64,000 nucleotides of DNA, taken from positions 30,844-94,843 of the IMG/VR virus record IMGVR_UViG_3300027586_000004. One strand, written 5' to 3'. The stretch is from a virus. The first letter of the stretch is position 1, and the number at the start of each line of letters is the position of its first letter. Of the stretch, positions 5,958-58,415 are shown in pieces. The position numbers were made by a program, and so were the translations under genes. Below the pieces are notes generated by a model. That model was given only the letters and a program-made list of their open reading frames with translations, did not search any database and was not told where the DNA came from.

Positions 5958-6287
5958 TTATTGTCCAGATTTCTTTAGAGACTTTTCTAGCGCCTTCCAC
6001 ACGTCCACGCTGTTGATCTTCTGAACCTTGGCTGCGGGTGCGGGAGGGGCTCCTCCTTCCGGCCCTAGCCCCGAAGACATACCTCCCATTGGCGGCCCTC
6101 CTAGACCCATTGGCGGCCCTCCTAGACCCATTGGCGGCCCTCCGCCTCCGCCTAGTCCGGGAGGTATTCCCATTCCGACGCCCGGACCGCCCTTAGGAGG
6201 TCCTCCACCCGGCGGACCTTTCGGGCCTCCTGGGGGTGGACCGGGGGGCGTCGCCTCCATCATCATATATTGGTAGAAAGTCTTCAC
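5958..6287 (-). CDS. Pro/Gly-rich low-complexity protein with capsid-targeting-like N-terminus
   Basis: GTG start, MKTFYQYMMME then PPG-rich tract. Confidence 0.7.
   Translation of the reverse strand: MKTFYQYMMMEATPPGPPPGGPKGPPGGGPPKGGPGVGMGIPPGLGGGGGPPMGLGGPPMGLGGPPMGGMSSGLGPEGGAPPAPAAKVQKINSVDVWKALEKSLKKSGQ
6085..6143. repeat. 21-nt coding tandem repeat, ~2.8 copies (encodes LGGPPMG)
   Basis: cccattggcggccctcctaga repeated. Confidence 0.9.
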
Positions 6288-6341
6288 GGACTTATATATG
6301 AACTATCTATATAATTAAGGACTGAACAAAGGAGGTTCAAA

Positions 6342-6518
6342 ATGAAAGACATGGATGCCAAGGATCTCGTGATCCTTCTTGTGACGGTATTTCTGCCCCC
6401 GTTGGGAGTGGCTATCAAATTCGGGCTCGGACTCAAGTTCTTGCTAAATCTAGCCTTGACTTTCCTCGGGTATGTTCCTGGGCTTGTCCACGGCGTGTAT
6501 GTCGTGCTCAAAGGTTGA
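6342..6518 (+). CDS. YqaE/Pmp3 (UPF0057) small membrane proteolipid, 58 aa
   Basis: Below ORF-track cutoff; MKDMDAKDLVILLVTVFLPPLGVAIKFGLGLKFLLNLALTFLGYVPGLVHGVYVVLKG with FLPPLGV and LGYVPGLVH motifs; AGGAGG RBS. Confidence 0.9.
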   Translation: MKDMDAKDLVILLVTVFLPPLGVAIKFGLGLKFLLNLALTFLGYVPGLVHGVYVVLKG

Positions 6519-7092
6519 TCTGCGGTATCTTTGAGGCGATCGTGTTCCAGTTCTTTTGAACCCAGTCGTGGAAGGCCTTTTCTGCGGCCTTGGGTCCGAT
6601 TTCGCTGGTCTTTCCGGTGGTCTGGAACTCAATCTCGTGGGTGGCCTCGTGGACTATCGTGCTGGCGATCTCCACGACGGCCTCCTTCGTGTCGCCCAGC
6701 TCCCTCACTATCCTCTGAACATTCACATGGATCACGTCCGACGGGACTATCTGCCTCTCGTCTATGTCGGGGATATATTGCTTTATGACCGCGTTGGGAA
6801 CCCTATTCAAGGCATTCTGCTGCATTACGTTCTGTCCGAATTTGAACTTAACCTTGTTCGTAACCGCTGGCCCTATGACCTTCTTGTTCTCGGAGGAGGT
6901 ATAAAGGCCGTAAACTCCGCTGTTCAGCGGGGCTATGGTGCTGATGTTGTTCAGTATTTTCTGGTTGGTTGCGCGGCCGTATAGCTGGACGAGTTTTATG
7001 GCGTACTTTGCCTTGTTATAGATGTGGTCTATCTTGCTCTGTACCTCGTCGGTACCCACGGTGTTTTCAAGCCAGTGTCTAAATCCTACCAT
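6508..7092 (-). CDS. Putative zinc metallopeptidase (HExxH) with capsid-targeting-like N-terminus
   Basis: Likely start MVGFRHWLE, 5 nt after a TATATA box; STIVHEATHEIE motif. Confidence 0.65.
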   Translation of the reverse strand: MVGFRHWLENTVGTDEVQSKIDHIYNKAKYAIKLVQLYGRATNQKILNNISTIAPLNSGVYGLYTSSENKKVIGPAVTNKVKFKFGQNVMQQNALNRVPNAVIKQYIPDIDERQIVPSDVIHVNVQRIVRELGDTKEAVVEIASTIVHEATHEIEFQTTGKTSEIGPKAAEKAFHDWVQKNWNTIASKIPQINL

Positions 7093-7121
7093 GGGCATAT
7101 ATACTGTATCTGGAGGTGAAA

Positions 7122-7328: not shown

Positions 7329-8707
7329 TGTCAAGGTTGATTTGCATATCAGGGAATTCGGGCGTGGGAAAAACCACGATTGCACAAATATTCAGATATT
7401 TTTTGGGGAGCAAAAATTGTTTGGCAATAAGTGGGGACGATCTTCATAGGTGGGAAAGGGGGAATGAGGCTTGGAAGACCATCACGCACCTAAATCCAGA
7501 AGCAAATGATTTAGATTTGGGCTACAAGCATATTGTTGACCTGAAAAGGGGCAAGTCCATTACAAGGTCAATATACAATCACGATACGGGAAAATTTGAC
7601 GACCCCTCTGTTTTTGATTCAAAGCCATGGATAATTTACGAAGGGCTTCATGCTCTTTACCATGAGCCGACACACAGAAAAGCTTTCATGAAAATATTCA
7701 TAGATGCCGAGGAGGATTTGAAAAATGAATGGAAAATCAAAAGGGACACAATAAAAAGAAAATACAAAAAAGAAGAAGTTGTAAAGCAAATAGAAAGAAG
7801 GAAGGCTGACGAGCGATTTATATTTGAACAGAAAAAAAATGCGGATGTATTGATTAAACTCGAAAAGTCAAAAGTTATAAATCTTCATTACAAGTGTACT
7901 GATCCTAATCACGAGCGAATTATGAAGTTCATTGTGGACTTTTATTACTCCATATTTGATTACCTTGACATTTCTTCTCGTTTGTCTATGGATTCAAATT
8001 TAATTCAATTCAAAGGAGGAAATATATCGGTAAAATCAAACGGAAAGATAATTGTAAAGACTTCGGGACAAAAAATTTCCGAGACAAATTTATCCAGCGG
8101 AATATCCATATGTGAAATAAGCAAGGGAAAATTCCAAAATGAAAAGCAGTACTCTGAATACATTTCTAGAATAAATACTTCAGAAAAAAATCCATCTTTG
8201 GAAAGTGGATTTCACATAAAATTGAACAACAAGTATGTAATTCATACACATCCCATTCACTTGAATGCAATATTGTGCAGTAATGAATCAAGGGCGATAA
8301 TAAAAGGAATGTTTAAAAACATGCCCTATCAGTTTGTTGAATACAAAACTCCTGGGGTTGATCTGTGCAATGCGATAGATCCAAATCCGCATGGAAATAA
8401 TATTTTTTTCTTACAAAACCACGGACTCATAGTTGGATCTAACGACAAAAAAAGTGCAATGGAAATAACGACAAAAATAAACGAAAGGTGCAAGCGTTGG
8501 ATCGGGGATCATGCCGAAAAATTCATAGACCTTCACAGAGCCAACAAGCGTCCTCTTTTTCCTGATGCCGTGATGTTCAAAGAAATGGAAGAGGTCAACA
8601 ACATAATACTATATCTTATGGAGACTTCTTGTCTAACCCCAAATTTTCTTGATAAAAATGAAATCAAACTAATAAAAATCTCTAGCCTAGAGAAGATCAG
8701 AAAATAA
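7328..8707 (+). CDS. Phosphoribulokinase/uridine-kinase-like P-loop domain fused to class II aldolase domain
   Basis: GNSGVGKTT, DDLHRWER, YEGLH; then GGNISVK, PSLE, HTHP, FLQNHG; the ORF-track start at 7022 is over-extended. Confidence 0.85.
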   Translation: MSRLICISGNSGVGKTTIAQIFRYFLGSKNCLAISGDDLHRWERGNEAWKTITHLNPEANDLDLGYKHIVDLKRGKSITRSIYNHDTGKFDDPSVFDSKPWIIYEGLHALYHEPTHRKAFMKIFIDAEEDLKNEWKIKRDTIKRKYKKEEVVKQIERRKADERFIFEQKKNADVLIKLEKSKVINLHYKCTDPNHERIMKFIVDFYYSIFDYLDISSRLSMDSNLIQFKGGNISVKSNGKIIVKTSGQKISETNLSSGISICEISKGKFQNEKQYSEYISRINTSEKNPSLESGFHIKLNNKYVIHTHPIHLNAILCSNESRAIIKGMFKNMPYQFVEYKTPGVDLCNAIDPNPHGNNIFFLQNHGLIVGSNDKKSAMEITTKINERCKRWIGDHAEKFIDLHRANKRPLFPDAVMFKEMEEVNNIILYLMETSCLTPNFLDKNEIKLIKISSLEKIRK

Positions 8708-9148
8708 CCTCTTGCACTCTAATGGAAAATCAGAACATACGCCATAAAAACCATATTTGTCAAAGTCAATCAGCGATTCCTTCGACAGCAAAGGTATTAC
8801 GAACTTGCTGTTCATTACTGTAAGATCGTGAGCCCATACATATCCGTTGCTTATCAAGACATAGGGGTCGGACTCGTGGAAGAAAAAAACCAAATCTGAT
8901 CCTAGAATCCATTCCAGAGCCGTTCTCTCTTTCACATGAATCCAAAGATTATTTCTTCTTTCGCGAAGCCATTCTTTTGAAACGGGGTGGTCGGCAGTAT
9001 CATGTCCTAGATGCGGGGTTCCACCTTTAATTCGCAGATCAATCTCCACATCAAACCCCATATCCAAAGCCTTTTGAATGTGTTCGGGCGAGTTTTCAAA
9101 AAAATTTTCGGGTCCGTTTATATTTCCTCTATGGGATATTATTTTCAT
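8687..9148 (-). CDS. Glycerophosphodiester phosphodiesterase-like protein
   Basis: IISHRGN, GFDVEID, LGHD, GVCSD. Confidence 0.75.
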   Translation of the reverse strand: MKIISHRGNINGPENFFENSPEHIQKALDMGFDVEIDLRIKGGTPHLGHDTADHPVSKEWLRERRNNLWIHVKERTALEWILGSDLVFFFHESDPYVLISNGYVWAHDLTVMNSKFVIPLLSKESLIDFDKYGFYGVCSDFPLECKRLFSDLL

Positions 9149-9443
9149 TGAAATCCTCAATTCTAAATGTCTTGTCGTCTATGAAAATGTCGTAATAGGG
9201 CTTATTGCACCAGACTTCATGACTTTTTACTCCCCATGACAAAAGTTGTGCCTTCGTGAACTCTGTCCAGTCTGTTCCCGTTCTACTTCCTCTTGCTGTC
9301 CAATATATAATTTTATGTCCCCGGTCATAAAGTTTGTTCATTTTATTGATGTTGTCCATGATTGGAGCTGACTTGTGATAATCTCTAGGGTTGTCTGGAG
9401 TAACACAAATCGTTTCGTCTATGTCTACAAAAATTACTTTCAT
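9129..9443 (-). CDS. HAD-superfamily phosphatase (capsule-biosynthesis type)
   Basis: DIDETIC, WTARG, KP..D.FIDDK. Confidence 0.85.
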   Translation of the reverse strand: MKVIFVDIDETICVTPDNPRDYHKSAPIMDNINKMNKLYDRGHKIIYWTARGSRTGTDWTEFTKAQLLSWGVKSHEVWCNKPYYDIFIDDKTFRIEDFNENNIP

Positions 9444-10279
9444 TTGACTTTACCTGTTGCGTGGTAGGTTTTCCAATAGTTGTAACAGTTGGCCACATCT
9501 TCTGCATTTTTGATTTGGCCTCCTCTCAACAGATGGGACCAACTTTCAAAATTCTCAACCTCTTCTGGGGTTCCAAAAACTGTCACAAATGGCGTGTCAA
9601 AATAACCAACTCTTAAACCATCTTGTATTAGCAAATTGTAAACTAATGTTACATAACATTCGCCATTATAATTTAAATCTTTCTCTAGAGCCAAATCAAA
9701 GTATTTTTTAAGTATCGCTCCGTTTTTGAAATGATATATTCCCGTTGATGCGTGCTCTTGGGTTGGTTTGTCGGTGTAGGACTGCTTTTCTTTGATCTCC
9801 ATAATCAACGGATATTCATTGTGTTCCTTTACGAATGCCATTTTTGTGGAGGCAAGAGCGTGTGGATGGAATCCAGTGTGAGTAAGAATGCATCCGTCCA
9901 TTTTGTGATTTTTCACATGTGATTGAAAATTTTGTCTATTCAATATGCATGGATTGTCACAATACGATACGACAACCTCTTCGTCATCTCCTATAAATTC
10001 ATACGCACTTTTAACGGTATAGACTGGTCCTTTTTTGTGCTGTGGCATGGAAACGATCTTTGAGTTTGGAACTAAATCCAAAAGAACATTTTTCACTTCT
10101 GTGTTTCTTACATGATTGTCGTTGCATATGAAAACAAAATCATCACTTGTTACGTCAAACATTTCAAGTATGTATTCTATTATTCTTTTTCCATTTACTC
10201 TTATAAGTGGCTTCGGATCTTTGTAGTTTTTTTCTACAAATCTGTTGCCTGTGCCGGCCATGGGTATGACAACTTTCAT
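9440..10279 (-). CDS. Sugar-phosphate nucleotidyltransferase
   Basis: IPMAGTGNRF...PKPLI, EIKEK, TGIYHF, GTPEE. Confidence 0.88.
   Translation of the reverse strand: MKVVIPMAGTGNRFVEKNYKDPKPLIRVNGKRIIEYILEMFDVTSDDFVFICNDNHVRNTEVKNVLLDLVPNSKIVSMPQHKKGPVYTVKSAYEFIGDDEEVVVSYCDNPCILNRQNFQSHVKNHKMDGCILTHTGFHPHALASTKMAFVKEHNEYPLIMEIKEKQSYTDKPTQEHASTGIYHFKNGAILKKYFDLALEKDLNYNGECYVTLVYNLLIQDGLRVGYFDTPFVTVFGTPEEVENFESWSHLLRGGQIKNAEDVANCYNYWKTYHATGKVK
10125..10221. repeat. Repeat A copy 1 (97 nt, inside the nucleotidyltransferase gene)
   Basis: Identical to 16134-16230 except one A/G. Confidence 0.95.
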
Positions 10280-10382
10280 AAAAACTCCTTTTGCTCATTT
10301 GTCAAATTAGCAGAGTTCCAAACTGGGTTTAGCGTCTGTTGTTGTAGTTGTAGGTGTTGTTGTAGGTGTGGACGGGATTCCG

Positions 10383-10558
10383 ATAGTAATCCTTTACTTT
10401 TGTCTCTGTCAATATTTACGATCAAAAATTTTTATTTGATTTTGTTTTGGATAAATTGTCAAATCAAGTCAAGTCAACATGCCGACAATTGGAAGGTATC
10501 CATAGGTCTGTACGAGTTTTATGGCTTGGGCATATATACAATTCCTGGAGGTAGAGAT
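10383..10558. repeat. Repeat B copy 1 (~176 nt divergent intergenic module)
   Basis: Aligns to 17024-17204 with a few substitutions and one 5-nt indel. Confidence 0.95.
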
Positions 10559-11711
10559 GCACAATCCTAGAATTATTTTTTCAATTCCAGCTCATGAGTG
10601 TTTTGAGTGTTTGGAAAAACAAATTGAAAATTTGATACTAAAAGTTCCCAATAGTTTTATTGTAATTTTTTTATCAGCCAACAACAATTTCCATCTAAAT
10701 AAAAACTCCTTTTCTGGGTACGAGGATAAAGTTTTTTTAAATCCAGATTCAAAGCCTACATTCTGGCCGGATTGTTATTATCAGCACTATTCCAATTATA
10801 AGTTCATAAAAGACAAATTAGATTTTGATTATTGGTGTTTTGAAGCTAGCAATTCTATTTTAATAAAGGATGGTCTCAATGAATATTTGACTAAATATGA
10901 CGCTTTGGCGAAGTCTGATAGGCTTTTTGGACCTACGCCGAATCAGACGAACTTCAGATCAATTTTAAAAGCAGAGAATTGGAATAGTTGGTGGAATAGA
11001 TTACCTAAAGATGAAAGATTCATGAAACTTGTAAAAGATAACAAGTTTGAAATGTATAATGGCTTTACTGAAGGAATGGTTTTTAACAAACACATATTGT
11101 CAGAAATTTTTGATATTTTAGATTTTTATGAATGCAATGACTATAGAACTGACAATCCAAATTATTACCCTAGGGATGAGCTGTATTTTACTACTGTATT
11201 TTTCAGCAAATTTTCAGATTCAAAACATAACCACAATTATTGCAATGTAAATTTGAATGTTGATAATATAGAATTTACGATGAAATCATTTGAAGGATTT
11301 TATGCGGTAAAGCCCTGTCCGAGGGATGTGGACTCTAAAATTCATCTAATGCTATATGAAATGGCGGATGTTGGATTCGAAAAATACTTTTACAAGAAAA
11401 AAAACTATCAAATTGGTCAAAAAAAATTCTTTTTCACAAATGATTTTTTGGTAGGAAAAATATTTGAATACATGAACAAAAAAGAAAAACTAGGTGAAGT
11501 TAAATTTCTTCCGGGTGGAGAGATTGGTTTGTTTGATCGCAAAAATGAAACAAGATGGAAAATAGATGAACTTGGTGATTTGTATTTTTTGGACAACGAT
11601 GGAGTGATAACGACTATATTCTATGCCAAAAAAGACCAGTTTTTTTATGGAGATTTTTGGCATAAAGGATTGAAAGAAGGTTACCAATGGCATATGTTGA
11701 AATCACATTGA
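10557..11711 (+). CDS. Putative glycosyltransferase with C-terminal beta-rich domain
   Basis: GGAGG RBS before MHNPRIIFSIPAHE; GT-A-like N-terminus; glycan island context. Confidence 0.5.
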   Translation: MHNPRIIFSIPAHECFECLEKQIENLILKVPNSFIVIFLSANNNFHLNKNSFSGYEDKVFLNPDSKPTFWPDCYYQHYSNYKFIKDKLDFDYWCFEASNSILIKDGLNEYLTKYDALAKSDRLFGPTPNQTNFRSILKAENWNSWWNRLPKDERFMKLVKDNKFEMYNGFTEGMVFNKHILSEIFDILDFYECNDYRTDNPNYYPRDELYFTTVFFSKFSDSKHNHNYCNVNLNVDNIEFTMKSFEGFYAVKPCPRDVDSKIHLMLYEMADVGFEKYFYKKKNYQIGQKKFFFTNDFLVGKIFEYMNKKEKLGEVKFLPGGEIGLFDRKNETRWKIDELGDLYFLDNDGVITTIFYAKKDQFFYGDFWHKGLKEGYQWHMLKSH

Positions 11712-11790
11712 AATTTATCAAACATGCCCCGTCCTGACAGGTTCGAGCGCGATATATATCTTTCTTAAATTTTGACACTTTTATATAATT

Positions 11791-12852
11791 ATGATCAACT
11801 TTACATTTTGTGTTCTAGCTTGTGCCAAAAACGAAAAATACGCAAATAGATTAAAAGATTTTATAGACTCATATGGCTATAAAAATCTAAATAAGGAAAT
11901 AAAAATAAAATTTGTTTACCTGGTGGAGGACGAAGATAAGCCATCTTTCATGAGCGACGAATCAGTGTGGTTTAAGTGTGCTGGGATGCCGATGAGCTGC
12001 AGGTTTTTGAAATATATCAAAGAAGTAAACGACGACTCCGAATGGGTTATGCAAGTAGATGATGATTCTAGTACCGACATAGACAAAACTGTTGAATTTT
12101 TGAATCAATACTACAACCATCAAGATTCAATGATGTTGATGGGAGGAAGAAACACAGATTTAGAACGTGTTCAACAAGCAATTGTCAGAACTATGAATGT
12201 TGGCAACTTCTTTTTTGGATCTAACGACATTTCAAAATTTGATACCCATCCGTTTTTTGTTCACGCATGGGAGCCGACAATAATATCAAAAGCCGCGGTC
12301 AAGGTTATTAAGCAGTGGTCAAGACTGAACGAGTATTTTGATTTGTGTTTGAAAAACAGACCTACATTCGGAGACCAAACGCCTTATGTTGCCGCAAAAC
12401 TAGCAAAAGTTCCGATTGTAGAGTGCTCCTTCATGTCGCCTTTTAACAAACACATGGAATACAGCGCAATTAATTCAGGCGGTAGGTACTCACACATACA
12501 TTATGTTACTGACAAGTGGAGTGGGTATAGTGACTTCAAGAATAAAATGATACGAGTTAAAAGAGGAGAGATACTAGATAAACCGCAACCTGCAAAAGAA
12601 GATTTGTGGCAATTTTTTGGTGGTACAAAAGGAAAGGAATCTTTTTATGGAAATTTTAAGTTAAACGATGATGGAACTTTAGGAATTTACAACAATGATA
12701 ACGAGTTTTTCTGGGAGCGGGATGGCGATAAGATAGTTTTTCTAAACACAAGAAAAGAAAAAACATGTATTTTGAGCAAAATAAATGAAAATGAATATTC
12801 AGGAGAGTTTTTGCTAAATAAGAGTGTAAATCACAAGATAATAAAAACATGA
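11791..12852 (+). CDS. Putative glycosyltransferase (GT31/fringe-like) with C-terminal beta-rich domain
   Basis: WVMQVDDD DxD motif; island context. Confidence 0.55.
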   Translation: MINFTFCVLACAKNEKYANRLKDFIDSYGYKNLNKEIKIKFVYLVEDEDKPSFMSDESVWFKCAGMPMSCRFLKYIKEVNDDSEWVMQVDDDSSTDIDKTVEFLNQYYNHQDSMMLMGGRNTDLERVQQAIVRTMNVGNFFFGSNDISKFDTHPFFVHAWEPTIISKAAVKVIKQWSRLNEYFDLCLKNRPTFGDQTPYVAAKLAKVPIVECSFMSPFNKHMEYSAINSGGRYSHIHYVTDKWSGYSDFKNKMIRVKRGEILDKPQPAKEDLWQFFGGTKGKESFYGNFKLNDDGTLGIYNNDNEFFWERDGDKIVFLNTRKEKTCILSKINENEYSGEFLLNKSVNHKIIKT

Positions 12853-13961
12853 GACTATTTGAAACAATGCCAGGACTTGCATACTCTGCGGTTGATGTCA
12901 GATGCTTATCTCATGATGGGTGCATTGTGGATTTAGGTTGTCTTTTTTGGGATTGGTCTAGATTCTTTATTGGCAAAAAAAGGGTAATAGGAGTTGATCC
13001 ATATGAAAAAGAGATAGAAGGAACAGAATTGTACAAAGGAATTGTTTGCGATGAAACTAATAAAGTTAGCATGTCAAATAACGGCGTTTCTTCAAGCGTT
13101 TTTAATGGAGGCGATGATTTAGTTAATGCTTTAAGTTGGTCAGATTTTTGTAAAAAATTCAATGTAGAAAAAATATCAGTATTGAAAATAAATATTGAAG
13201 GTTCTGAATATAGATTGTTGCGGGCAATGAGTCAAGAAGATTTTGAAAAAATAGATCAGATAGCAGTAAGTTTTCATGATTGGATGAATCCGTCTTGGCG
13301 AAAAGATACTTTGGAATGCCTAAAAATTTTGGAAAAAAACGATTTTTCATTCGTAAAAATACATGAGCCTTATGGTTGGTATTTGGCAATAAAGAATAAG
13401 GAAATGAACGTGGACATAATTTTGGAAGCGTTGAAAAACAATTGGTTGTTTCGTAGAAAAATTCAAATCAAACATCCTGATATGTCAGGGGAACTCTATA
13501 GGCATTTCATGGGATTTTCCTGCGACTTGTCTGCCATTAAAAAATTGATTGACGAAAATCAATATGAAATTCAAGAATTGTACACAGATTGTTGTTTGTC
13601 AATTCTTGTTGGAAAATGGAATCCTGAACGAATAGCAGAAAATAAAATATCTGATAATAGGTCTGAATTACTTTACGAAATAGATTCAGACGCATCGGTC
13701 AATGTTGCAAAAATATTTTTCAAACATGCTTCTGGTGGCCATAGGCTTGACGTCTATCGAGTCGCAATTGAACATGAAGGCAAGGTCATATCCGAAGATG
13801 AACACCACGGATACGCGGGTTTAGGAGAAGACAAAAATTATTACAAAGTTGATTTTAAAGGCTTAAAAAATGTTACTTGTAGAGTTTGTTGCAACGCAAT
13901 TATAGATGGAAATAAATTAGATGGATTTGGAAACATTTATTTTGCCAAATGGAGCAATTAA
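12849..13961 (+). CDS. FkbM-family methyltransferase with extra C-terminal domain
   Basis: IVDLGC, VLKINIEGSE, QIAVSFH. Confidence 0.8.
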   Translation: MRLFETMPGLAYSAVDVRCLSHDGCIVDLGCLFWDWSRFFIGKKRVIGVDPYEKEIEGTELYKGIVCDETNKVSMSNNGVSSSVFNGGDDLVNALSWSDFCKKFNVEKISVLKINIEGSEYRLLRAMSQEDFEKIDQIAVSFHDWMNPSWRKDTLECLKILEKNDFSFVKIHEPYGWYLAIKNKEMNVDIILEALKNNWLFRRKIQIKHPDMSGELYRHFMGFSCDLSAIKKLIDENQYEIQELYTDCCLSILVGKWNPERIAENKISDNRSELLYEIDSDASVNVAKIFFKHASGGHRLDVYRVAIEHEGKVISEDEHHGYAGLGEDKNYYKVDFKGLKNVTCRVCCNAIIDGNKLDGFGNIYFAKWSN

Positions 13962-14641
13962 TGATAATACATCAAATTTGGCTAGGTGATGCTGATAGAA
14001 TTTTAAATCGCGACAAAATACTTATTGAGCAAAACAAAATATTTTGTGATCATTATTCGCATCATTACATATTTTGGTCTTATGACAAAATAGAGAAAGA
14101 ACTTCTTCCCAATTTGATTTCAAATGAAAACATTGCCTTGTTGAGAAAGAAGTACTCAGAAATAAAAAGAAAAAAGTGCTACTCTGCATTTGTAGACATA
14201 TTTAAAATAGCTGTGGTGTATTTTTATGGAGGAATGTATATTGATACAGATTATGAAATCATCACTAATGACTTCGCTAAAGATGTTCAACAAAGATGCG
14301 GACTTGACAAAATAGGAATAGTTCAGCATTATAATTGGGGCATCTATGCGGCAGGCTTGTACTACGCAGAATCAACTTTTCAAAATGAACACGTTAAAAA
14401 CTTCATATATGGTTTGTTTGATTATTTCTTGTCATTGAAAGATATTAATGATGTGAATGTCGCGCTCACGGGTCCCGAGGGGATCAACAAAGTCATAAAA
14501 ACGCATGAAGTGCCTCATGTTTCTCTTGGGAAAAAATACATGTCAATGCCCTATGGTGCGAATCCTGAAGACGACGGTTCTTGGATGGTTCCTTATAAAG
14601 ACGCTTATCTCGTCCATTACTGGTCGGCCAGTTGGCATTAA
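13961..14641 (+). CDS. GT32/OCH1-like DxD glycosyltransferase
   Basis: IIHQIWLG, GGMYIDTD, TGP, HYWSASW; TAATG overlap. Confidence 0.88.
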   Translation: MIIHQIWLGDADRILNRDKILIEQNKIFCDHYSHHYIFWSYDKIEKELLPNLISNENIALLRKKYSEIKRKKCYSAFVDIFKIAVVYFYGGMYIDTDYEIITNDFAKDVQQRCGLDKIGIVQHYNWGIYAAGLYYAESTFQNEHVKNFIYGLFDYFLSLKDINDVNVALTGPEGINKVIKTHEVPHVSLGKKYMSMPYGANPEDDGSWMVPYKDAYLVHYWSASWH

Positions 14642-14680
14642 AAAGAACAATTGAAATACTTTGTTCATGGCATAGCCGAA

Positions 14681-14709
14681 TTGCAAAAATGGAAAATTTT
14701 GGCTAAGAT
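14681..14709 (+). promoter_or_regulatory. Sigma70-type promoter, probably leaderless transcript
   Basis: TTGCAA-17 nt-TAAGAT, ATG 6 nt downstream. Confidence 0.55.
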
Positions 14710-14715
14710 AAGACA

Positions 14716-16125
14716 ATGAAAGAAACCGTCCTCCGCATACAAAACTGCTACTCCTGGCTCTACTGCGAGAAGCCCGAGGTCTTGAGCGTTCTCCACGAGA
14801 ACATGCGGTTCAGGGAGAGGGGCTACTTCCACAGCCGGCTCTACAAGCAGAAACTATGGGACGGGTACACGGAGTTCTTCAGCAAGAAGACGGGCAGGTT
14901 TCTCACGGGACTGCTCCCCGAGGTCAAGGCGGCCCTCGCCCACATCGGCGAGGAGTTCAGGGTTCTTGATGAGCGGGACGCGTTTGAATTCAAGTTCAAT
15001 GAAATAGATGAGGAATTCCTCGGCAAGGACATAAAACTCTACGACTACCAGGTTGACTTGACCAACGCATTGATCAAATACAGGAGGGGCGTGATATGCG
15101 CGCCCACGGCGGCAGGGAAGACGGCCGTGATGGTCTCCATCATCAAGGCTCTCCCCGAGGGATGTCCCACACTCGTGCTTGCGAACAAGAAAAGCCTCGT
15201 GGAGCAGAACTACGATGAGATCGTCAAGTGGGGGTTTCAGAATGTCGGAAGACTCTACGGAAAGTACAACGATCCCGGAGTAATAACCTGTGCAACAGTG
15301 CAGTCCCTACATAAGATGGAGACTCTGCTTGACAAGGTGAAGGTTCTTATCGTGGATGAGATACACGAGAACATGAGCAAGGAGCCGAAGAAGTACTTCA
15401 ACAAAATGAAGAGCTGCTGCGTCAGGGCCGCGGTCAGCGCGACACCCTTCAAATTCGGCGGAAAAGACCTGTGCCAGAAATGGCTGGTAAAGGGCTACTT
15501 CGGGCCGGCCTTCAAGTCGAAGAGTGCCGGAGGCGTGCTGACGACGAGCCATCTCCAAGAGCGGGGCATGCTGTCCAAGAGCAGGTGCGTTTTCTACCCG
15601 GTGAGGGAGCCGGATCTGAAGTACGAGATATACATTGATGCCGTGACCCGTGGAATAGCGGAGAACTGGCACTTTCATGAAATGATAAAGAACCTTGCCG
15701 ACAGGCTGGAGGGGAGGACTCTGATCCTTGTGGAACGCATAGCCCAGGGCGACTCCCTCGCCTCGCTCATTCCCGGCTCCCTGTGGGTTCAGGGCAAGGA
15801 TGACCTGGCGACCAGAAAGATGGTCATAGACAAGCTCAAGACCTCAAAGGAGAAGGTTATCGCGATAGGAACACAGCAAATAATGACCGCCGGAATCAAT
15901 GTCATGACCCACAACGTGGTCAATGCGGCGGGCGGCCAGGCCGACCATCACATCATCCAGAGGGTGGGAAGAGGACTCAGGACGGCCGATGACAAGGATA
16001 TTCTTAACTACTACGACTTCGTATTCCACAACAACGACTATCTCCTGGAACACAGCAAGAAGAGGATCAAGATTCTAAAAAAAGAGGGTCATGAAATAGT
16101 GATTCGCGAAGAGATAGACTTCTGA
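14716..16125 (+). CDS. uvsW: UvsW-like superfamily 2 helicase
   Basis: LYDYQ, PTAAGKT, DEIH, SATP, QRVGRGLR; WDG..F N-terminal motif of UvsW homologues. Confidence 0.85.
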   Translation: MKETVLRIQNCYSWLYCEKPEVLSVLHENMRFRERGYFHSRLYKQKLWDGYTEFFSKKTGRFLTGLLPEVKAALAHIGEEFRVLDERDAFEFKFNEIDEEFLGKDIKLYDYQVDLTNALIKYRRGVICAPTAAGKTAVMVSIIKALPEGCPTLVLANKKSLVEQNYDEIVKWGFQNVGRLYGKYNDPGVITCATVQSLHKMETLLDKVKVLIVDEIHENMSKEPKKYFNKMKSCCVRAAVSATPFKFGGKDLCQKWLVKGYFGPAFKSKSAGGVLTTSHLQERGMLSKSRCVFYPVREPDLKYEIYIDAVTRGIAENWHFHEMIKNLADRLEGRTLILVERIAQGDSLASLIPGSLWVQGKDDLATRKMVIDKLKTSKEKVIAIGTQQIMTAGINVMTHNVVNAAGGQADHHIIQRVGRGLRTADDKDILNYYDFVFHNNDYLLEHSKKRIKILKKEGHEIVIREEIDF

Positions 16126-17023: not shown

Positions 17024-17204
17024 ATAGTAATCCTTTACTTTTGTCTATATTCTGTCAATATTTACGATCAAAAATTTTTATTTTATGTTGTTTTGGATAA
17101 ATTGTCAAATCAAGTCAAGTCAACATGCCGACAATTGAAAGGTATCTGTAGGTCTGGACGAGCTTTATGGCTTGGGCATATATACAATTCCCGGAGGTAG
17201 AGAT
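17024..17204. repeat. Repeat B copy 2
   Basis: Aligns to 10383-10558. Confidence 0.95.
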
Positions 17205-17215
17205 ATATAGCCTTT

Positions 17216-18010
17216 ATGGATACCTTCATACAGTGGCTAGAGAACAGCGGCGACATATTCGGCTTCGAAGGAAAAAGGCACGAGAAGCCCAGTGAGGTCA
17301 ATGAAGACCCGATAATCCCCGTGGATGCAGGGGTCATCATAGAGACCATGCTCGGCACCGACATTGGGGGTCGCAAGGCGTTCTCCGACTACCCCGCCCA
17401 GATACAGTGGGGAAGGGAGCCGGGCGCGATGCAGATGGTCATAACCCCGCTGGGATCCTTCAAAAGCATCGTCAGGAAACTCTTGACAAACCTCAAGGGT
17501 GAGAGCGTATGGGCCTGCAAGAAGATCATACCCTACAAGGATATCATGCGTTCCAACGACAGATTTGACGAGGCTTTTGCCATGGATCTGTTCGAGCAGA
17601 TTGAAGAGATAAGCAAGGGCGAGATGGAGGCTCCAGTCTTGGACTATGACGGACTTGAGTCATTGACGCTCAAGGTGGCCAACAGGTGCGTCAGGAATGA
17701 TGTCCTGCCCGAGATATTCGTGTTCAGGGGCGTCCGCGCAATAAAGAAGAACGAGAACTACGTAATCTTCTTCGAGCCGAGGGGTCATGGGGTGGAGGCT
17801 CCGGGATCGGCAAGACTAGAACAGTTCATGATAGACATGAGCTACGACGGAAAGACGGGAATGGTCAGGAGCTTCGGTCACGACGTGCAGTCTCCCACGA
17901 AGGGCCACGTCTGGTATCCGCAGCCGTCCGAGTGGGACGAGTACTTCTCTCCGACCCAGGAAAAGAACGAGATAACCGACGCCATATCATCGGCGTTCAG
18001 GACATACTGA
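17216..18010 (+). CDS. Hypothetical protein with capsid-targeting-like N-terminus
   Basis: MDTFIQWLE; TATATA 6 nt upstream. Confidence 0.75.
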   Translation: MDTFIQWLENSGDIFGFEGKRHEKPSEVNEDPIIPVDAGVIIETMLGTDIGGRKAFSDYPAQIQWGREPGAMQMVITPLGSFKSIVRKLLTNLKGESVWACKKIIPYKDIMRSNDRFDEAFAMDLFEQIEEISKGEMEAPVLDYDGLESLTLKVANRCVRNDVLPEIFVFRGVRAIKKNENYVIFFEPRGHGVEAPGSARLEQFMIDMSYDGKTGMVRSFGHDVQSPTKGHVWYPQPSEWDEYFSPTQEKNEITDAISSAFRTY

Positions 18011-18011: not shown

Positions 18012-18209
18012 ATGACTTTCAAGCAGTACCTCAATGAGATCGCGGGAACTTTCGCAATGGTGTCGTGCAAGGACATGGAAAACCCCAATTTTCAGGTCTG
18101 GGGGGCGATGTCTGATCTCAAATGCCGGAAAGGCAGGAGCTCAATTCCTAAAATGAAACTCAACGGAGACAAGGAGAATTCCAATGGCAAAGCCCACAAA
18201 AAGCAATGA
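18012..18209 (+). CDS. Small protein with capsid-targeting-like N-terminus
   Basis: MTFKQYLNE. Confidence 0.65.
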   Translation: MTFKQYLNEIAGTFAMVSCKDMENPNFQVWGAMSDLKCRKGRSSIPKMKLNGDKENSNGKAHKKQ

Positions 18210-21053: not shown

Positions 21054-21809
21054 ATGCCAATCGCTCTTGCCGGATTGATGTTTGTACTGATGACTTCGTT
21101 CTCTTATTCGGGAACAATCGACCCTTCAGTCCCCGATTCAAAGCATGTGGAGTATGGAAAGCAATTCGTCCATGTCGTAAAGATCAAGGGCGTGTGCAAC
21201 TGCAGGAAGAGAGACAGCGAGCATGACTTCCGTGCGAGTGCAGTAATAATTTCTCCCCACTGGGCGATGACCGCCGCTCATGTTGTCAGTTCCGCTGATG
21301 ACGTGGTGATTGTGAAGGGCGGAAAAGAGCACAAGATAAGCAAGGTCAAAATCCATAAGGATTTCGACAAGGACAAAGTTGGACACAACGACATAGCCCT
21401 GTGCCATTCCGAAGAGGATTTCGGAATGGCTTTCTATCCGGAGATGTATGTCCGCGATGACGAGGCGGGAAAGATTGCGGCCATATGCGGATATGGAATC
21501 ACCGGCACATTTTCCACGGGAGCAGTCAAGTCAGACGATCTAAAAAGGGCGGGTTCCAATGTGATTGAAAGAACAGAAAGGAACTGTCTCATATGCAAAA
21601 ATCAAGGGGGCAGGAAAACCGAACTTGAATTCATGATCGCCAGTGGTGACAGCGGAGGCGGACTTTTCATAGACGGCAAGCTGGCGGGGATAAACTCGTT
21701 CGTCATGGCGGACGATGGAAAGCCAAACTCCGACTACGGCGACGAATGCGCCCACACGAGGGTGAGCCTCTATGCAGATTGGATTAAAGAAGCAATGGGG
21801 GAGGATTGA
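21054..21809 (+). CDS. Trypsin-like (S1) serine protease with hydrophobic N-terminus
   Basis: TAAH, DIAL, GDSGG catalytic triad motifs. Confidence 0.92.
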   Translation: MPIALAGLMFVLMTSFSYSGTIDPSVPDSKHVEYGKQFVHVVKIKGVCNCRKRDSEHDFRASAVIISPHWAMTAAHVVSSADDVVIVKGGKEHKISKVKIHKDFDKDKVGHNDIALCHSEEDFGMAFYPEMYVRDDEAGKIAAICGYGITGTFSTGAVKSDDLKRAGSNVIERTERNCLICKNQGGRKTELEFMIASGDSGGGLFIDGKLAGINSFVMADDGKPNSDYGDECAHTRVSLYADWIKEAMGED

Positions 21810-47907: not shown

Positions 47908-48680
47908 AGGACAGGCCAGCTTCTGCGGATTAGGAATCCCCCCGGTTGCTTCTCAAGCCACTTTTTGAATCCCATTCTCCCCTCGCTTGTCTGCATGGCT
48001 TGCCTCTGCTGGATTCCCATGGTCTTCGGCGACTGTGAACCCATGGGCCCGCTTCTGTCTGATGGGACGAACAGGGGCTTGTTGTAGGTCGTATTGGGAA
48101 GCTGTTGTGGCCTTGCGAAGGAGTTTGTGTTTTTTATGTCGGCCAGCGTGGCATCAAAACTTCTGTTGGTTTTGTGGTCGTACACGCTGAATTCTATTTC
48201 TTCTTGCGGCTCCTCTATGCCCTCTTGGTCAAGTATTTCTTCTATTCCATTTGAAATCTGCTTTTTCTTGTTGGCGTCGTACCCGAATAATTCTATGTTG
48301 TTAGATCTGACGGCGATCCATCCGTCGTGCTTCATGACGTAGAGCCGTGCGTCCCCGCCTCCCCCTAGAATATTGTAGACCTCCATGTTTATGCCGAGTT
48401 TCTTTATCACCATGTCTGCAGCCCAATAAACTCCGCGTTCGAGGAGTGCGTAACGGATCGCCTCTAGTAGTTCGGATGTGCTTGTGAAGGGTTCGTCGTG
48501 AATTCCCAGATCTTCGGTGTCCACGCCTAGTTCCTGGGCATAGTCCATGATTCTGTCTACATGGTCGGCCGCTATAGAATTCAGCGCGATCATCTCGTGG
48601 TTCTGATCTCCCACGTCGCCGTCCGCGAATTCAACTTGGCCCCCTTGAATCCAATATTCCCCTCTAATCTTTGACATCAC
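47904..48680 (-). CDS. Hypothetical protein
   Basis: 258-aa ORF; SEGRMGFKKWLE near C-terminus. Confidence 0.75.
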   Translation of the reverse strand: MMSKIRGEYWIQGGQVEFADGDVGDQNHEMIALNSIAADHVDRIMDYAQELGVDTEDLGIHDEPFTSTSELLEAIRYALLERGVYWAADMVIKKLGINMEVYNILGGGGDARLYVMKHDGWIAVRSNNIELFGYDANKKKQISNGIEEILDQEGIEEPQEEIEFSVYDHKTNRSFDATLADIKNTNSFARPQQLPNTTYNKPLFVPSDRSGPMGSQSPKTMGIQQRQAMQTSEGRMGFKKWLEKQPGGFLIRRSWPVL

Positions 48681-49066
48681 ATGCTCCCCGGCTGGGGCTG
48701 GAAGTCCTGGGACATGAGTTTGTCAAGGTCTTCTATTCCAACGAGGAACTTCCTCTCGTCGGGAGTTCCGTCTATTTTGACGAATCCGCCTTCTCCGTCG
48801 TCCTTGTACTGTCTGTTGCTCATGGACTTGTCCGTCGTCTGCTTGACGAGGGCGTGGGTGATCCTTCCATTGTGGTCGCGCTTGAACCCCAGGACTTTGT
48901 AGGGGGCTATGTTGCTTAGGGTCTTTCCGAAAGAAAAGAAGCTTGCGACCAAGGGCTCGTGCTCCAGGTCAGAAGGTTTTATGCCTAGTTCGTCCCTGAT
49001 CGAAGACAGGAAGGGGTGCTTGTTCTCCTCCTCGCGGAGGAATTCGGAAAAAGTTTTTTCAGTCAT
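48677..49066 (-). CDS. Hypothetical protein with capsid-targeting-like N-terminus
   Basis: MTEKTFSEFLREEE; TATATA 8 nt upstream. Confidence 0.75.
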   Translation of the reverse strand: MTEKTFSEFLREEENKHPFLSSIRDELGIKPSDLEHEPLVASFFSFGKTLSNIAPYKVLGFKRDHNGRITHALVKQTTDKSMSNRQYKDDGEGGFVKIDGTPDERKFLVGIEDLDKLMSQDFQPQPGSM

Positions 49067-49107
49067 ACAAAAGATATATATCTAGGTCGCAATTTTTTAG
49101 GAGAAAC

Positions 49108-50341: not shown

Positions 50342-50342
50342 A

Positions 50343-50681
50343 ATGGAAATAGTCACAAAGGGATGGGGCCACGAGAAGGTGATACACAACTCGGGGGGCT
50401 ACTGCGGCAAAATACTCTGCTTCAGGAAGGGAGCGAAGTGTTCTTATCATTATCACGCAATTAAGGACGAACATTTCTACTGCGTTGGAAAAATTCTCCT
50501 GAGATACGGATGGACGGACGACATCGCCTCGACAGAGCGGGTCGTCCTAAGTACGGGGGATGACTTCCACATCCCGGTGGGAATGAGACACCAGATGGAG
50601 GCTCTCGAGGACTCCGAACTTTTTGAGTTCTCCACCACGGATTACGCGGATGATTCCATAAGAATAGTCCCCGGCGACTAG
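50343..50681 (+). CDS. Cupin, sugar-isomerase-like
   Basis: KGWGHE, YCGK, S.HYH..KDE, H. Confidence 0.8.
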   Translation: MEIVTKGWGHEKVIHNSGGYCGKILCFRKGAKCSYHYHAIKDEHFYCVGKILLRYGWTDDIASTERVVLSTGDDFHIPVGMRHQMEALEDSELFEFSTTDYADDSIRIVPGD

Positions 50682-50689
50682 ATATCGTC

Positions 50690-51496
50690 ATGGAATTTAG
50701 GGACTTCATTATCAACGAGTATGAGAGAAAACTCGCCAAGGCGTACGCGGACATCCTCAGGGACGTACCCCAGAGTCCTGAACACCACCCCGAGGGATCC
50801 GTTCTCAATCATGTCAGACTCGTAAGGAAGGCGATATCCGCCGCAATAGAGGAACTGAAGAGCCTGAAGTCGGATGCCGTCCTTGGGGATGTACTCGCCA
50901 ACCTTGATTTCAACATGAACTCCGAGGAGATAAAAATACTCAACACCGCCGCGTGGCTGCACGACATAGGCAAGTTCAGTTCCACCACCATAGATGGAAT
51001 TCATTTCAACTCCGCTCCCAACAAGAGCGGAAAGATACAGGCCATAGGCCACGAGACTCCATCGCACTACCAACCCCAACTGGACAAACTTTCCGGTCTG
51101 GCTCCGAAGGAATTAGTGGACTTCTATGAAACGCACAAGGAAACAATCAATTTCCTCATCGAACGCCACATGGATTTTGCTCACGGAGGCTTCGGCAAGC
51201 GAGTCGTCGCCAACTACTTTGACAATGGCAGGATCAAGAACGACAGGAATATGAGGCTCCTTCTTGTTCTAATGTGGGCCGACAAGATGGGTCGGGGAAC
51301 GGTGGCTGACCTCGCGGACAACATATTGAAGCTAAGGACGGCGTCCGAAAAGAGCAGGCAGAACCACACCAATCTTTCAAAGCAATTCAAGCCGTTCCAG
51401 GGCGGAGAGGACGACCTCAGGGCCATGCTCAGACAGAGGGGATTGTCCGAAAAGGACATAGAGGCGGCCGTCACTTCCAAATTTGGATTCCGATAG
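50690..51496 (+). CDS. HD-domain phosphohydrolase with capsid-targeting-like N-terminus
   Basis: MEFRDFIINE; Q..EHHPEG.V..H, LHDIGK, GHE, HM, AD..GR. Confidence 0.8.
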   Translation: MEFRDFIINEYERKLAKAYADILRDVPQSPEHHPEGSVLNHVRLVRKAISAAIEELKSLKSDAVLGDVLANLDFNMNSEEIKILNTAAWLHDIGKFSSTTIDGIHFNSAPNKSGKIQAIGHETPSHYQPQLDKLSGLAPKELVDFYETHKETINFLIERHMDFAHGGFGKRVVANYFDNGRIKNDRNMRLLLVLMWADKMGRGTVADLADNILKLRTASEKSRQNHTNLSKQFKPFQGGEDDLRAMLRQRGLSEKDIEAAVTSKFGFR

Positions 51497-53389: not shown

Positions 53390-53485
53390 ATGTCATTCTG
53401 AGTCAAAATTGGAATTGACGCGTGCGCGTACAGATGCGAGCCATAAGGGGTTGTGCGGTTTGCTGCATTTTGCTAGATTACATTA

Positions 53486-55482: not shown

Positions 55483-55656
55483 ATTTGTACATTTCGCGCT
55501 GATGCGCGTGTGGTGCCGAAGGTGATGAAGACGATCGGCACCCGCGTTATGTCGCCAGGCTCGGCATCCAGCTTCCCATGCGATCAAGTTTAAAATACTA
55601 GAAAACACATACATACTGATGTGCAAAAAATTCAAATAATATAAGGGAAGTTCTTT

Positions 55657-57789
55657 ATGCCAAAATACGAATTGGAATTAAGTCCAACAAATACGCCAAC
55701 CGAGGGCGGGGAAGGATCACTTGACACATCTTTGCTAAATGGCAGTTCAATTCAGAGAACTGGTTATATTACAATTATAAATGAAGATGGAAGCACCAAA
55801 ACCCTAAACCTTAAAGATGGAGCCAATTTTGATTCAACAACACAAGGATTTGTTGATATTCCTCAGATAATTATTCTTGTTTCTTCTGATGCTTCGCCCA
55901 CACCCACGCCCACCTTGACCTTAACATCAACGCCCACACCCACGCCCACCTTGACCTTAACATCAACGCCCACACCCACACCCACGCCAACTCAAACGCC
56001 TCCTGCTCCTGCATTCGCAGCAACTGTAGAGATTGCGGCGGAAAATTTTACTTTAACAATGCCATATTGGTCCGAAGGAACTTATTCTGGAACTATCAAT
56101 TGGGGAGATGGAACCACATCAGATAACGAAATAGGAGCAGATCACACCTATGCTACCGCTGGTACTTACTCCATCACAATTGGCGGAGGGATAACTGGTT
56201 GGTTTACCTATGACAACGGAGAGGTTGATGTTAACGGAAATATTCATGAAGTGCTTATTTCAATAGATGCTTTTGGATCGAATTTTGACTTCGGAACTTA
56301 TGCTGCACAAACCAATGGTAGTCTTTTTGATGGCTGTTTGTTGTTAGAATCAATAGCAACAGACATTCCAACTGAAAATGTTACAACTATGAGTGGTATG
56401 TTCTATGAGTGTACTGTATTCAATCAACCGTTATCTTTCGACACTTCAAGTGTTACAGATATGAGTTATATGTTCTATTACTGTGAGAACTTCAATCAAC
56501 CGTTATCTTTTGACACTTCAAATGTTACAGATATGCAAGGAATGTTTGAAGAGTGTAATACCTTTAATCAACCGTTATCTTCTTTCGACACTTCAAGTGT
56601 TACAAATATGAGTGATATGTTCTATGTCGCTTTGAACTTCAATCAAGATTTATCTAATTTCGATACTTCAAATGTTACAGATATGAGTTCAATGTTCGCT
56701 ATCAGTAGCTTCAATCAAGATTTATCTGCTTTCGACACTTCAAGTGTTACAGATATGAATGGTATGTTCACAAACTGTTCTACATTCAATCAAGATTTAT
56801 CTACTTTTGACACTTCAAGTGTTACAAATATGAGTGATATGTTCCAAGGATGTTCTTTATTCAATCAAGATTTATCTACTTTTGACACTTCAAGCGTTAC
56901 AAATATGGAAGAAATGTTTCGTGGATGTTTACTCTTAGCTCAACCGGTATCTTTCGACACTTCAAGTGTTACAAATATGAAGGGTATGTTCTATGACATT
57001 CCTTTATTCAATCAACCATTATCTTTTGACACTTCAAGTGTTACAGAGATGACTTCAATGTTTGATAACTGTCCTTCATTCAATCAAGATTTATCTTCTT
57101 TTGACACTTCAAATGTTACAGATATGGGATATATGTTCTTTAACTGTTCTACATTCAATCAAGATTTAAGTGGTTGGTGTGTTAATCTTATACAATCAGA
57201 GCCAGTAGGGTTTTCAGTCCAAACAAATGCTTGGGTTTTGCCAAAGCCAATTTGGGGTAACTGTCCAGCCGACTACACCTACACGACCAGTAATAGCGAG
57301 ATCACCATTACCGGATACGCCGGAGCTGGAGGGGCGATCACCATCCCCTCGACTATTGGTGGTCTTCCCGTCGTTGCGATTGGGAACGGTGCGTTCTACG
57401 GCCGCACCGGCCTCACCAGCGTGACGATCCCAAGCAGCGTCACCAGTATTGGGAGCAGTGCGTTCTTTGGCTGCACCGGCCTCACCAGCGTGACGATCCC
57501 AAGCAGCGTCACCAGTATTGGGAACAATGCGTTCCGCGACTGCACCGGCCTAACCAGCGTGACGATTTCAAACGGCGTCACCAGTATTGGAGACGGTGCG
57601 TTCTTCAACTGCAGAGGCCTAACCAGCGTGACGATCCCAAGCAGCGTCACCAGTATTGGGGATAGTACGTTCTACGATTCTGGATTAACAACTGTAACTA
57701 TAGCAAATAACCAATTATCAGGTATAGCATCGCCCGCTGCAGGCGTTGACTTTTTTGGAGTAACTGTTACCACTCAGCTTCCTTTTTAA
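55657..57789 (+). CDS. BspA-type surface/adhesin protein: Pro/Thr linker, PKD-like domain, DUF285 repeats, LRR_5 repeats
   Basis: INWGDG; about a dozen FNQ.L..FDTS.VT.M..MF repeats; C-terminal LTSVTIPSSVTSIG..AF repeats. Confidence 0.9.
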   Translation: MPKYELELSPTNTPTEGGEGSLDTSLLNGSSIQRTGYITIINEDGSTKTLNLKDGANFDSTTQGFVDIPQIIILVSSDASPTPTPTLTLTSTPTPTPTLTLTSTPTPTPTPTQTPPAPAFAATVEIAAENFTLTMPYWSEGTYSGTINWGDGTTSDNEIGADHTYATAGTYSITIGGGITGWFTYDNGEVDVNGNIHEVLISIDAFGSNFDFGTYAAQTNGSLFDGCLLLESIATDIPTENVTTMSGMFYECTVFNQPLSFDTSSVTDMSYMFYYCENFNQPLSFDTSNVTDMQGMFEECNTFNQPLSSFDTSSVTNMSDMFYVALNFNQDLSNFDTSNVTDMSSMFAISSFNQDLSAFDTSSVTDMNGMFTNCSTFNQDLSTFDTSSVTNMSDMFQGCSLFNQDLSTFDTSSVTNMEEMFRGCLLLAQPVSFDTSSVTNMKGMFYDIPLFNQPLSFDTSSVTEMTSMFDNCPSFNQDLSSFDTSNVTDMGYMFFNCSTFNQDLSGWCVNLIQSEPVGFSVQTNAWVLPKPIWGNCPADYTYTTSNSEITITGYAGAGGAITIPSTIGGLPVVAIGNGAFYGRTGLTSVTIPSSVTSIGSSAFFGCTGLTSVTIPSSVTSIGNNAFRDCTGLTSVTISNGVTSIGDGAFFNCRGLTSVTIPSSVTSIGDSTFYDSGLTTVTIANNQLSGIASPAAGVDFFGVTVTTQLPF

Positions 57790-57942
57790 ATGAGTTCTTA
57801 CGGCGATGTTTAACTCTTTGGAGAAGGGTGAATTCTGGCGACGAGGATATGAATATGCTGGGAAAAAGTATAGATAGGGCATGGAGAAATTTATGAAAAA
57901 AAACCCGCCGGCACTTGAATATTGGAATCCGGAGACTCAAAA

Positions 57943-58233
57943 ATGAAATTTACCGAATGGATGAAACTGAAGGAACAGGTGATCGGCACGGCTGCCGCGG
58001 GAGCTTCCGGTCTTGTCAGCAAGATGCCTGGAATGTCGGGATTTGACAAGACCAAGAAGAGAATAGATTCTACGATTAAGGGTCTTTTTCTCAAAGGAGA
58101 CACCAAGCAGGCAACCAAGAAGGTTGACACGATCATAAACGGCGAGATCAACAACGCGGCCACCGGCCTAGAGGACGCAGCCAAGCTCGCCGGCATGAGA
58201 GATTCAATAAAGAAGAATCTTTCTTCGCTATGA
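57943..58233 (+). CDS. Small protein with capsid-targeting-like N-terminus
   Basis: GGAG RBS before MKFTEWMKLKE. Confidence 0.7.
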   Translation: MKFTEWMKLKEQVIGTAAAGASGLVSKMPGMSGFDKTKKRIDSTIKGLFLKGDTKQATKKVDTIINGEINNAATGLEDAAKLAGMRDSIKKNLSSL

Positions 58234-58415
58234 GTTTCCGCGAATGGCTTTTGAGCGAGGGCGGCAAGGGTTCCGGGACCAAGTTTACGTCCACCGGTCT
58301 AAATGCAGGAGGCCAGGCTCAAAGCGGAATGACATTCAGGATGTCCGTAAAACCTGCAAAGCCTTTTGTTCCCCGCATAAAAACTAAAATAAGGCCGTGG
58401 AAGAGCTCTATTTGA
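58230..58415 (+). CDS. Small protein with capsid-targeting-like N-terminus
   Basis: MSFREWLLSE; ATGA-coupled. Confidence 0.65.
   Translation: MSFREWLLSEGGKGSGTKFTSTGLNAGGQAQSGMTFRMSVKPAKPFVPRIKTKIRPWKSSI

Follow-up and report, generated by a model that had tools for sequence, protein, structure and literature searches.

Unrelated proteins of a distant, uncultured T4-like phage share an N-terminal peptide resembling the T4 capsid-targeting sequence

Why should proteins with nothing else in common begin with the same short peptide? The question is posed by a 64,000-nt stretch of viral DNA (the window), which comprises bases 30,844-94,843 of the 94,843-nt IMG/VR virus record IMGVR_UViG_3300027586_000004. 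An earlier reading made from the letters alone (the sequence-only reading) had listed nine open reading frames (ORFs) of the window that start with one amphipathic peptide, here called the tag, and took this peptide for a capsid-targeting sequence of the T4 type that marks a hidden set of packaged and injected effectors. All nine N-termini translate as that reading wrote them, and a six-frame scan of the whole record with the motif M-x(0-4)-F-x-x-[FYW]-[LIMF] revealed two further tagged ORFs upstream of the window, giving 11 in 95 kb. The 11 proteins are indeed unrelated, with a best BLASTP E of 0.3 beyond residue 14, and the tagged ORFs of the window are spread over 52 kb and both strands. 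The evidence presented here suggests that the tag is probably a homologue of the T4 capsid-targeting sequence, which would load the proteins that carry it into the capsid and then be removed by the prohead protease; that the tagged proteins are also injected into the host, as the analogy with T4 would have it, is a claim that we hold less firmly.

In all 11 tags a Phe at residue 2-6 is followed three residues on by Trp, Tyr or Phe, and the conserved positions are an aromatic residue, a second aromatic three residues on, an adjoining aliphatic residue and a Glu 1-4 residues later. The 264-aa tagged protein of the window led to six related IMG/VR contigs; three of them were fetched whole, together with the complete 595,163-nt genome LR756511 of an uncultured phage, and in all three contigs and in LR756511 many ORF starts carry the motif. 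Its strict form, M-x(0-4)-F-x-[EQDH]-[WYF]-[LIM]-x(0-4)-E, was counted at the starts of genes from a simple codon-usage gene call, with internal ATGs as the baseline, and the enrichment expected by the sequence-only reading was found: 7/96 gene starts compared to 1/508 internal ATGs in this record (Fisher p 1.5e-5), 11/166 compared to 3/845 in the relative G004, and 21/981 compared to 5/2720 in the complete 595 kb of LR756511. Chance as the source of the motif is rejected on this difference between gene starts and internal ATGs. A position matrix trained on other genomes only recovered, at 10 bits, 8/96 genes here and 0/508 internal ATGs, one of the eight matches being false. The false match is an internal Met of PrkA at 59618, which has a tag-like score in every genome and was set aside, as was another tag-like internal Met in a membrane-protein ORF upstream of the window. 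The statement that replication and metabolic enzymes start without the tag holds for the Pfam-identified enzymes of the window, namely the small chain of ribonucleotide reductase, SbcC/SbcD-like proteins, a family A polymerase, DnaB-like and DEAD helicases, a RecA-like protein, a glycosyltransferase, a kinase/cytidylyltransferase and PrkA.

The tag is also conserved as its carriers diverge. G004 and the window share tagged orthologues at 46-71% identity, and orthologues of the window's tagged genes retain the tag while its remaining residues drift. In a large protein database the family of the HExxH protein described below has 377 homologues, and 106 of the 120 listed carry F-x-x-W-[LMI] near residue 4; in the family of the 264-aa protein the tag is present in 103 of the 120 homologues listed, with F and W invariant, and in the ADP-ribosyltransferase-like family in 16/18. 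The Phe and Trp are thus essentially invariant across families of 120 members. One public record starts the ADP-ribosyltransferase-like protein at Met13, so that its tag is lost, and several seemingly tagless homologues of the 264-aa and HExxH families begin inside the tag or just past it. Such apparent exceptions may be start-codon miscalls, and automatic start calls may conceal the tag in protein databases.

The closest counterpart of the tag is found in T4 itself. In the T4 genome (AF158101) the internal proteins IPII and IPIII start with MKTYQEFIAE followed by Ala, and IPI starts with MKTFKEF; the window gene at 36078 starts with MKTFKQYLE, two differences from IPI over the first seven residues. 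Amber-suppressor scanning of the T4 sequence showed that residues 4 and 7 matter for targeting and residues 8 and 10 for processing; the T4 prohead protease gp21 cleaves after L/I-X-E (PMC9026906). The invariant residues of the tag correspond to these positions, both those mapped for targeting and those mapped for processing. In 34/58 tags (59%) an [LIMV]-x-E site occurs no more than nine residues from the second aromatic, compared to 14% of matched control windows (p 6e-15), and the residue after the tag Glu is mostly Asn, Ala, Ser or Gly. Among the 11 tags of this record, seven end in the canonical [LI]-x-E, one in M-x-E (Met-Met-Glu) and three in aromatic-Leu-Glu.

A head module with a candidate protease is present in the relatives. 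In G004 it follows the T4 order, with a portal gene, a tagged 270-aa gene, a 598-aa gene, a protease of the Peptidase_S77 (gp21) family (Pfam 1.6e-28, PHROG 1e-48), a scaffold-position protein and a gp23-like capsid protein, and the same module is found in the complete LR756511. The G004 capsid propeptide contains four sites of the [LIMV]-x-E type and the protease N-terminus starts with one, as in T4. AlphaFold models of the proteins at 36078 and 7092 (described below) both place the tag in a separate short helix (residues 4-12 and 4-9), and a flexible linker, modelled with low confidence, connects it to the folded body, as a removable label would require. Together, the match to the T4 tag, the mapped positions, the protease site and the S77 module of the relatives support, on sequence evidence, the capsid-targeting role that had been proposed. 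When the N-terminal 40 residues of a tagged protein of G004 were co-folded with the scaffold-position protein of that genome, the score was 0.00, which is evidence neither way. In G004 a homing-endonuclease-like gene (L011:10754-11926:-) lies directly after the major capsid gene.

Several points weigh against a packaged, cleaved and injected set of proteins. All three steps are predicted from sequence. Peptidase_S77 was not found on the 95-kb fragment, a result that is uninformative on the whole genome, and the protease, scaffold and capsid genes are all absent from the fragment and seen in relatives only. Cleavage is less certain at the three aromatic-Leu-Glu tags and the Met-Met-Glu tag, which are non-canonical. 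We infer late timing only from the kind of untagged genes that share a promoter-like box with the tagged ones, as described below, and the tagged SNF2-type helicase and DnaJ-domain protein of the relatives could equally be ordinary intracellular proteins.

Turning to the proteins that carry the tag, searches with Pfam and PHROGs returned essentially nothing for them beyond weak matches to PHROGs of unknown function. The clearest case is the 249-aa protein encoded at 36078-36827 on the plus strand, for which the sequence-only reading had suggested an ADP-ribosyltransferase (ART) fold. It has no Pfam match and no sequence similarity to a named family; its model (pLDDT 82, built with 18 homologues) finds ARTs in nearly all of its top 50 structural matches, at Z 4-7, among them Tpt1/KptA, Rhs ART toxins, PARPs, Arr, pertussis- and cholera-type toxins and DarT, and residues H25, Y58 and E212/E213 are invariant in the 18 homologues. 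The model, the structural matches and the invariant residues support an ART fold with an H-Y-E type triad. The 194-aa protein at 6508-7092 on the minus strand, with another in-frame ATG two codons upstream of its start, had been described as an HExxH peptidase. Of this description the motif stands, since H148, E149, H152 and E155 are invariant in 47 sequences, while the fold is supported only moderately: the model has a pLDDT of 74, and zincins (ACE, a zincin-like protease, Wss1 and deuterolysin) lead its structural matches at Z 5-6, mixed with helical prenyl synthases. With Pfam it gave only a sub-threshold VLTF3-like hit, and we regard it with moderate confidence as a zincin-like protein, a fold distinct from that of the ART. 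Foldseek found nothing at E 0.001 for the ART model against PDB or for the HExxH model against BFVD, and an all-against-all structural aligner was needed. The third enzyme proposed earlier, an HD hydrolase of 268 aa at 50690-51496 on the plus strand, is a lead only: the HD dyad and flanking His (H..HD..D) are visible in its sequence, and Atlas feature hits at 0.93 point to clusters of which 36-58% carry PF01966, but it has no Pfam match at E 0.01. A tagged orthologue of this candidate is found in G004.

The other tagged proteins of the window are mostly small. The Pro/Gly-rich protein named in the sequence-only reading is seen directly at 5958-6287 on the minus strand, where a GTG start (its first residue read as Met) opens a 109-aa ORF in which Glu-Ala directly follows the tag and a low-complexity Pro/Gly-rich body makes up the rest; its gene always adjoins the HExxH gene, and tagged orthologues are present in the relatives G003, G004 and G005. 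No other tagged protein of the clade is conserved as widely as the 264-aa protein at 17216-18010 on the plus strand, which is of unknown fold and has no Pfam or PHROG match. The gene for a 65-aa tagged protein, 18012-18209 on the plus strand, starts one base past its stop codon. The 129-aa protein at 48677-49066 on the minus strand, of unknown function, has tagged orthologues in G003, G004 and G005. A second pair consists of the genes for a 96-aa protein at 57943-58233 and a 61-aa protein at 58230-58415, both on the plus strand and overlapping by 4 nt; 57943 is the first ATG of its ORF, the longest form of which starts with a TTG at 22. Upstream of the window, the six-frame scan placed the two further tagged ORFs at L002:1242-3290 (682 aa) and L003:13936-14282 (115 aa), both on the minus strand. 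We keep outside the eleven a weak candidate at 21806-22165 on the plus strand, with a TTG start, the N-terminus x-x-V-F-F-K-K-W-M and no Glu after it; a TTG-started ORF resembling it is present in G003. In the relatives the tag is also found on a 946-aa SNF2/DEAD-type helicase, a DnaJ-domain protein and a nucleotidyltransferase of the poly(A)-polymerase/CCA type. The genes of the helicase (L013:10755-13595:-) and of the 417-aa DnaJ-domain protein (L013:13670-14923:+) of G004 diverge from one short intergenic region, and each is preceded by a promoter-like box.

Many tagged genes have a comparable box. The gene at 17216 has TATATA at 17204-17209 on the plus strand, 6 nt before its ATG, and further TATATA/TAGATA boxes lie at 6293-6298, 7098-7103, 49075-49080 and 50679-50684, before the starts at 6287, 7092, 49066 and 50690, respectively. 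In 5/9 tags of the window a box of the TA[TGA]A[TA]A type thus stands 5-8 nt before the start codon, with no Shine-Dalgarno sequence between. Boxes 3-16 nt before the ATG are associated with the tag in this record (p 0.002), in G004 (p 8e-6) and in LR756511 (p 1e-6). Untagged genes of this record and G004 that share the box include a neck-protein gene, the 598-aa head-module gene and several membrane-protein genes, and the box fits a T4-late-like promoter that would give nearly leaderless mRNAs.

This association raises the question of whether the conserved feature is the peptide at all. Near-leaderless genes behind a promoter-like box might need a particular 5' coding sequence for the start of transcription or translation, and both the statistical link between box and tag and the short distance of 5-8 nt in five window genes could be read in this way. 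However, synonymous codons vary freely at every conserved residue of the tag and in proportions typical of the genome (31 TTT and 27 TTC for Phe, and all six Leu codons in use), which indicates selection on the peptide. The starts at 18012, 57943 and 58230 have the tag and no box, so that the tag is independent of it; the gene at 57943 has a GGAG ribosome-binding site upstream, and the other two abut or overlap the preceding gene. Conversely, the neck-protein, head-module and membrane-protein genes have the box and no tag, and we consider such a nucleic-acid constraint very improbable. If the peptide itself is selected, it could still be a recognition leader for something other than the capsid, such as a modifying enzyme, a chaperone, a membrane or another part of the virion. 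An amphipathic N-terminal helix is a generic docking element, and its binding partner here is still putative. Against this, no gene for a radical-SAM enzyme occurs in this record, the tagged genes lie dispersed across 52 kb of both strands and share no constant neighbour among the called genes, and the peptide has neither a hydrophobic core nor a twin-Arg motif; a prohead-protease site follows it, and its match to the experimentally defined T4 tag holds position by position. A leader of this kind therefore appears improbable, if less so than the nucleic-acid constraint.

The most serious alternative accepts the first half of the interpretation and is a narrower version of it. The tag might load the prohead, with most tagged proteins serving as accessories of the core or scaffold that are degraded or retained in the head, like gp67 and gp68 of T4, rather than as effectors delivered to the host. 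It is in keeping with such a role that 5/9 window proteins are only 61-129 aa long and have no recognisable domain, that the 264-aa and HExxH families are conserved throughout the clade like structural genes and unlike variable arms-race genes, and that cleaved proteins which are not injected are present in T4 cores (PMC9958956). On the other hand, an ART fold, an HD-like protein and the nucleotidyltransferase of the relatives make little sense as parts of a scaffold, and the T4 internal proteins with the same tag are injected (PMC12373910). We regard the restriction to accessories as unlikely, though clearly better placed than either of the two preceding explanations, and the preferred reading remains that of a T4-type capsid-targeting sequence.

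The record is a fragment, with a CheckV completeness of 16%, and since this corresponds to ~95 kb the genome would be near 0.6 Mb. Upstream of the window PHROG searches identify T4-type tail and neck genes, including a neck adaptor, a sheath stabiliser, the sheath (E 4e-78), a tube, a second tube-like gene and the baseplate hub, and a 176-aa protein (L003:5309-5839:-) matches a gp55-type late sigma factor (E 7e-7). Judged by its genes, the record is a fragment of a distant T4-like myovirus that is uncultured. When 15 kb of the window were compared by megablast with cultured and GenBank phages, no match was obtained, and to our knowledge the clade has no cultured member. The 'moraphage' lineage was considered as the clade of LR756511 and rejected, being a separate and smaller group; the literature searched makes no mention of LR756511.

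In T4 the capsid-targeting sequence is carried by IPI, IPII and IPIII, and the ip genes of T-even phages are polymorphic (Mullaney and Black 1996 and Repoila et al. 1994, as cited in PMC9958956 and PMC12373910). The T-even internal proteins are described as a diverse set with only the targeting sequence in common (PMC3012670), and at least 10 are known, found through the signal (PMC12373910). Unrelated proteins that share only this signal have thus been described before, and the 'hidden' aspect of the set, by which the sequence-only reading implied something new in kind, does not stand (PMC3012670, PMC12373910). Like the T4 internal proteins, the tagged proteins have an N-terminal peptide of ~10 residues, with aromatics at 4 and 7, an aliphatic residue and a Glu that ends a gp21-type site, on otherwise unrelated bodies, and an S77 prohead protease is encoded, here in the relatives of the clade. 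The differences lie in the phage, which stands very far from the cultured T4-likes (about 30% identity between its capsid protein and theirs, and clade genomes of about 0.6 Mb), and in the tag, in which Trp usually takes the place of the second aromatic and the spacing to the Glu varies by 1-4 residues. Tagged genes number 11 in 95 kb here and at least 21 in the complete LR756511, compared to three in T4 and about ten across the T-evens. The cargo of the clade includes enzymes of up to 946-1040 aa, whereas the T-even internal proteins are small basic anti-restriction proteins, and many tagged genes stand directly behind a promoter-like box with almost no leader, unlike the ip genes of T4.

Other proteins packaged in phage heads offer a further comparison. 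T4 Alt, a head-packaged ADP-ribosyltransferase, is about 680 aa long and of the R-S-E type. The protein at 36078 resembles it in being an ART-fold protein with an N-terminal propeptide in a T4-like phage, with delivery alongside the DNA and modification of host targets predicted, and differs in its 249 aa, its H-Y-E type triad and its nearest neighbours, ARTs of the PARP, Tpt1 and toxin types at Z 5-7. The packaging of ARTs in the head is a widespread prediction for myoviruses (PMC9503650). In phiKZ-like giant phages (201phi2-1, phiKZ and SPN3US) a gp21-related protease cleaves many proteins of the head interior after Glu, and the propeptides of these proteins are thought to target the prohead (PMC5694885, PMC9026906). 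Those propeptides are mostly longer than 100 residues, have no common short motif and are cleaved at S/A-X-E, in contrast to the tag of this clade, which has the length of the T4 sequence and can be recognised from its residues. None of the papers on 'capsid targeting sequence' that we retrieved describes the signal for huge phages. The present observations extend a T4 mechanism that is already known; the novelty lies in the clade, in the number and density of tagged genes (11 in 95 kb), in the Trp-centred form of the tag and in the enzyme cargo.

In the mechanism that we propose, the tagged genes would be made late, often from a promoter-like box abutting the ATG, and the tag would dock their products onto the scaffolding core of the assembling prohead. 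The protease would then cut after the tag Glu, freeing the mature protein inside the head, and at least the enzyme cargo might leave with the DNA at infection: the ART, zincin-like and HD-like proteins here, and in the relatives the SNF2-type helicase, the DnaJ-domain protein and the CCA/poly(A)-polymerase-like nucleotidyltransferase. A further-reaching version, which we advance tentatively and think possible rather than probable, is that the tag marks an 'injectome' of 20-30+ proteins per ~0.6-Mb genome, predictable from sequence and delivered with the DNA as an enzymatic starter kit, and that box and tag form a portable cassette by which captured genes become late-made head cargo. If the tag works as it does in T4, sequence would suffice to list what an uncultured clade of ~0.6-Mb phages carries in its heads, and the same enzymes of this record and its relatives would form a list of candidates for host takeover or anti-defence. 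The T4 loading signal would then still be recognisable across a very deep divergence, with capsid proteins only about 30% identical, which would help to define its requirements (two aromatics, an aliphatic residue and a Glu) and the core protein that reads it. In reviews the identity of this core protein is called unresolved (PMC9958956).

Apart from the tagged genes, the window contains ribonucleotide reductase, SbcC/D-like genes, a family A polymerase, DnaB-like and DEAD helicases and a RecA-like protein, as well as a single-stranded DNA-binding protein (SSB), ThyX, many sugar-related genes and a PrkA operon. The latter occupies 59549-63999, where two long genes, of 397 and 390+ aa, come after one for a PrkA-family kinase/AAA protein (Pfam E 1e-75 to 1e-78). 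We take these two genes to occupy the positions that YeaH and SpoVR have in bacterial PrkA operons. The internal Met-Ser-Phe motif of the PrkA-like protein is found in G004, G005 and LR756511 as well. Upstream of the window, the ORFs at L002:18837-19424 and L003:4523-5038 adjoin each other and have similar N-termini, and the first of them matches tail-tube PHROGs; the pair may be a duplicated tail tube. Finally, the region 8000-16000 of the window has a G+C content of 35-41% compared to about 48%, and its ORFs score weakly in the gene call, so that it looks like a compositionally foreign block.

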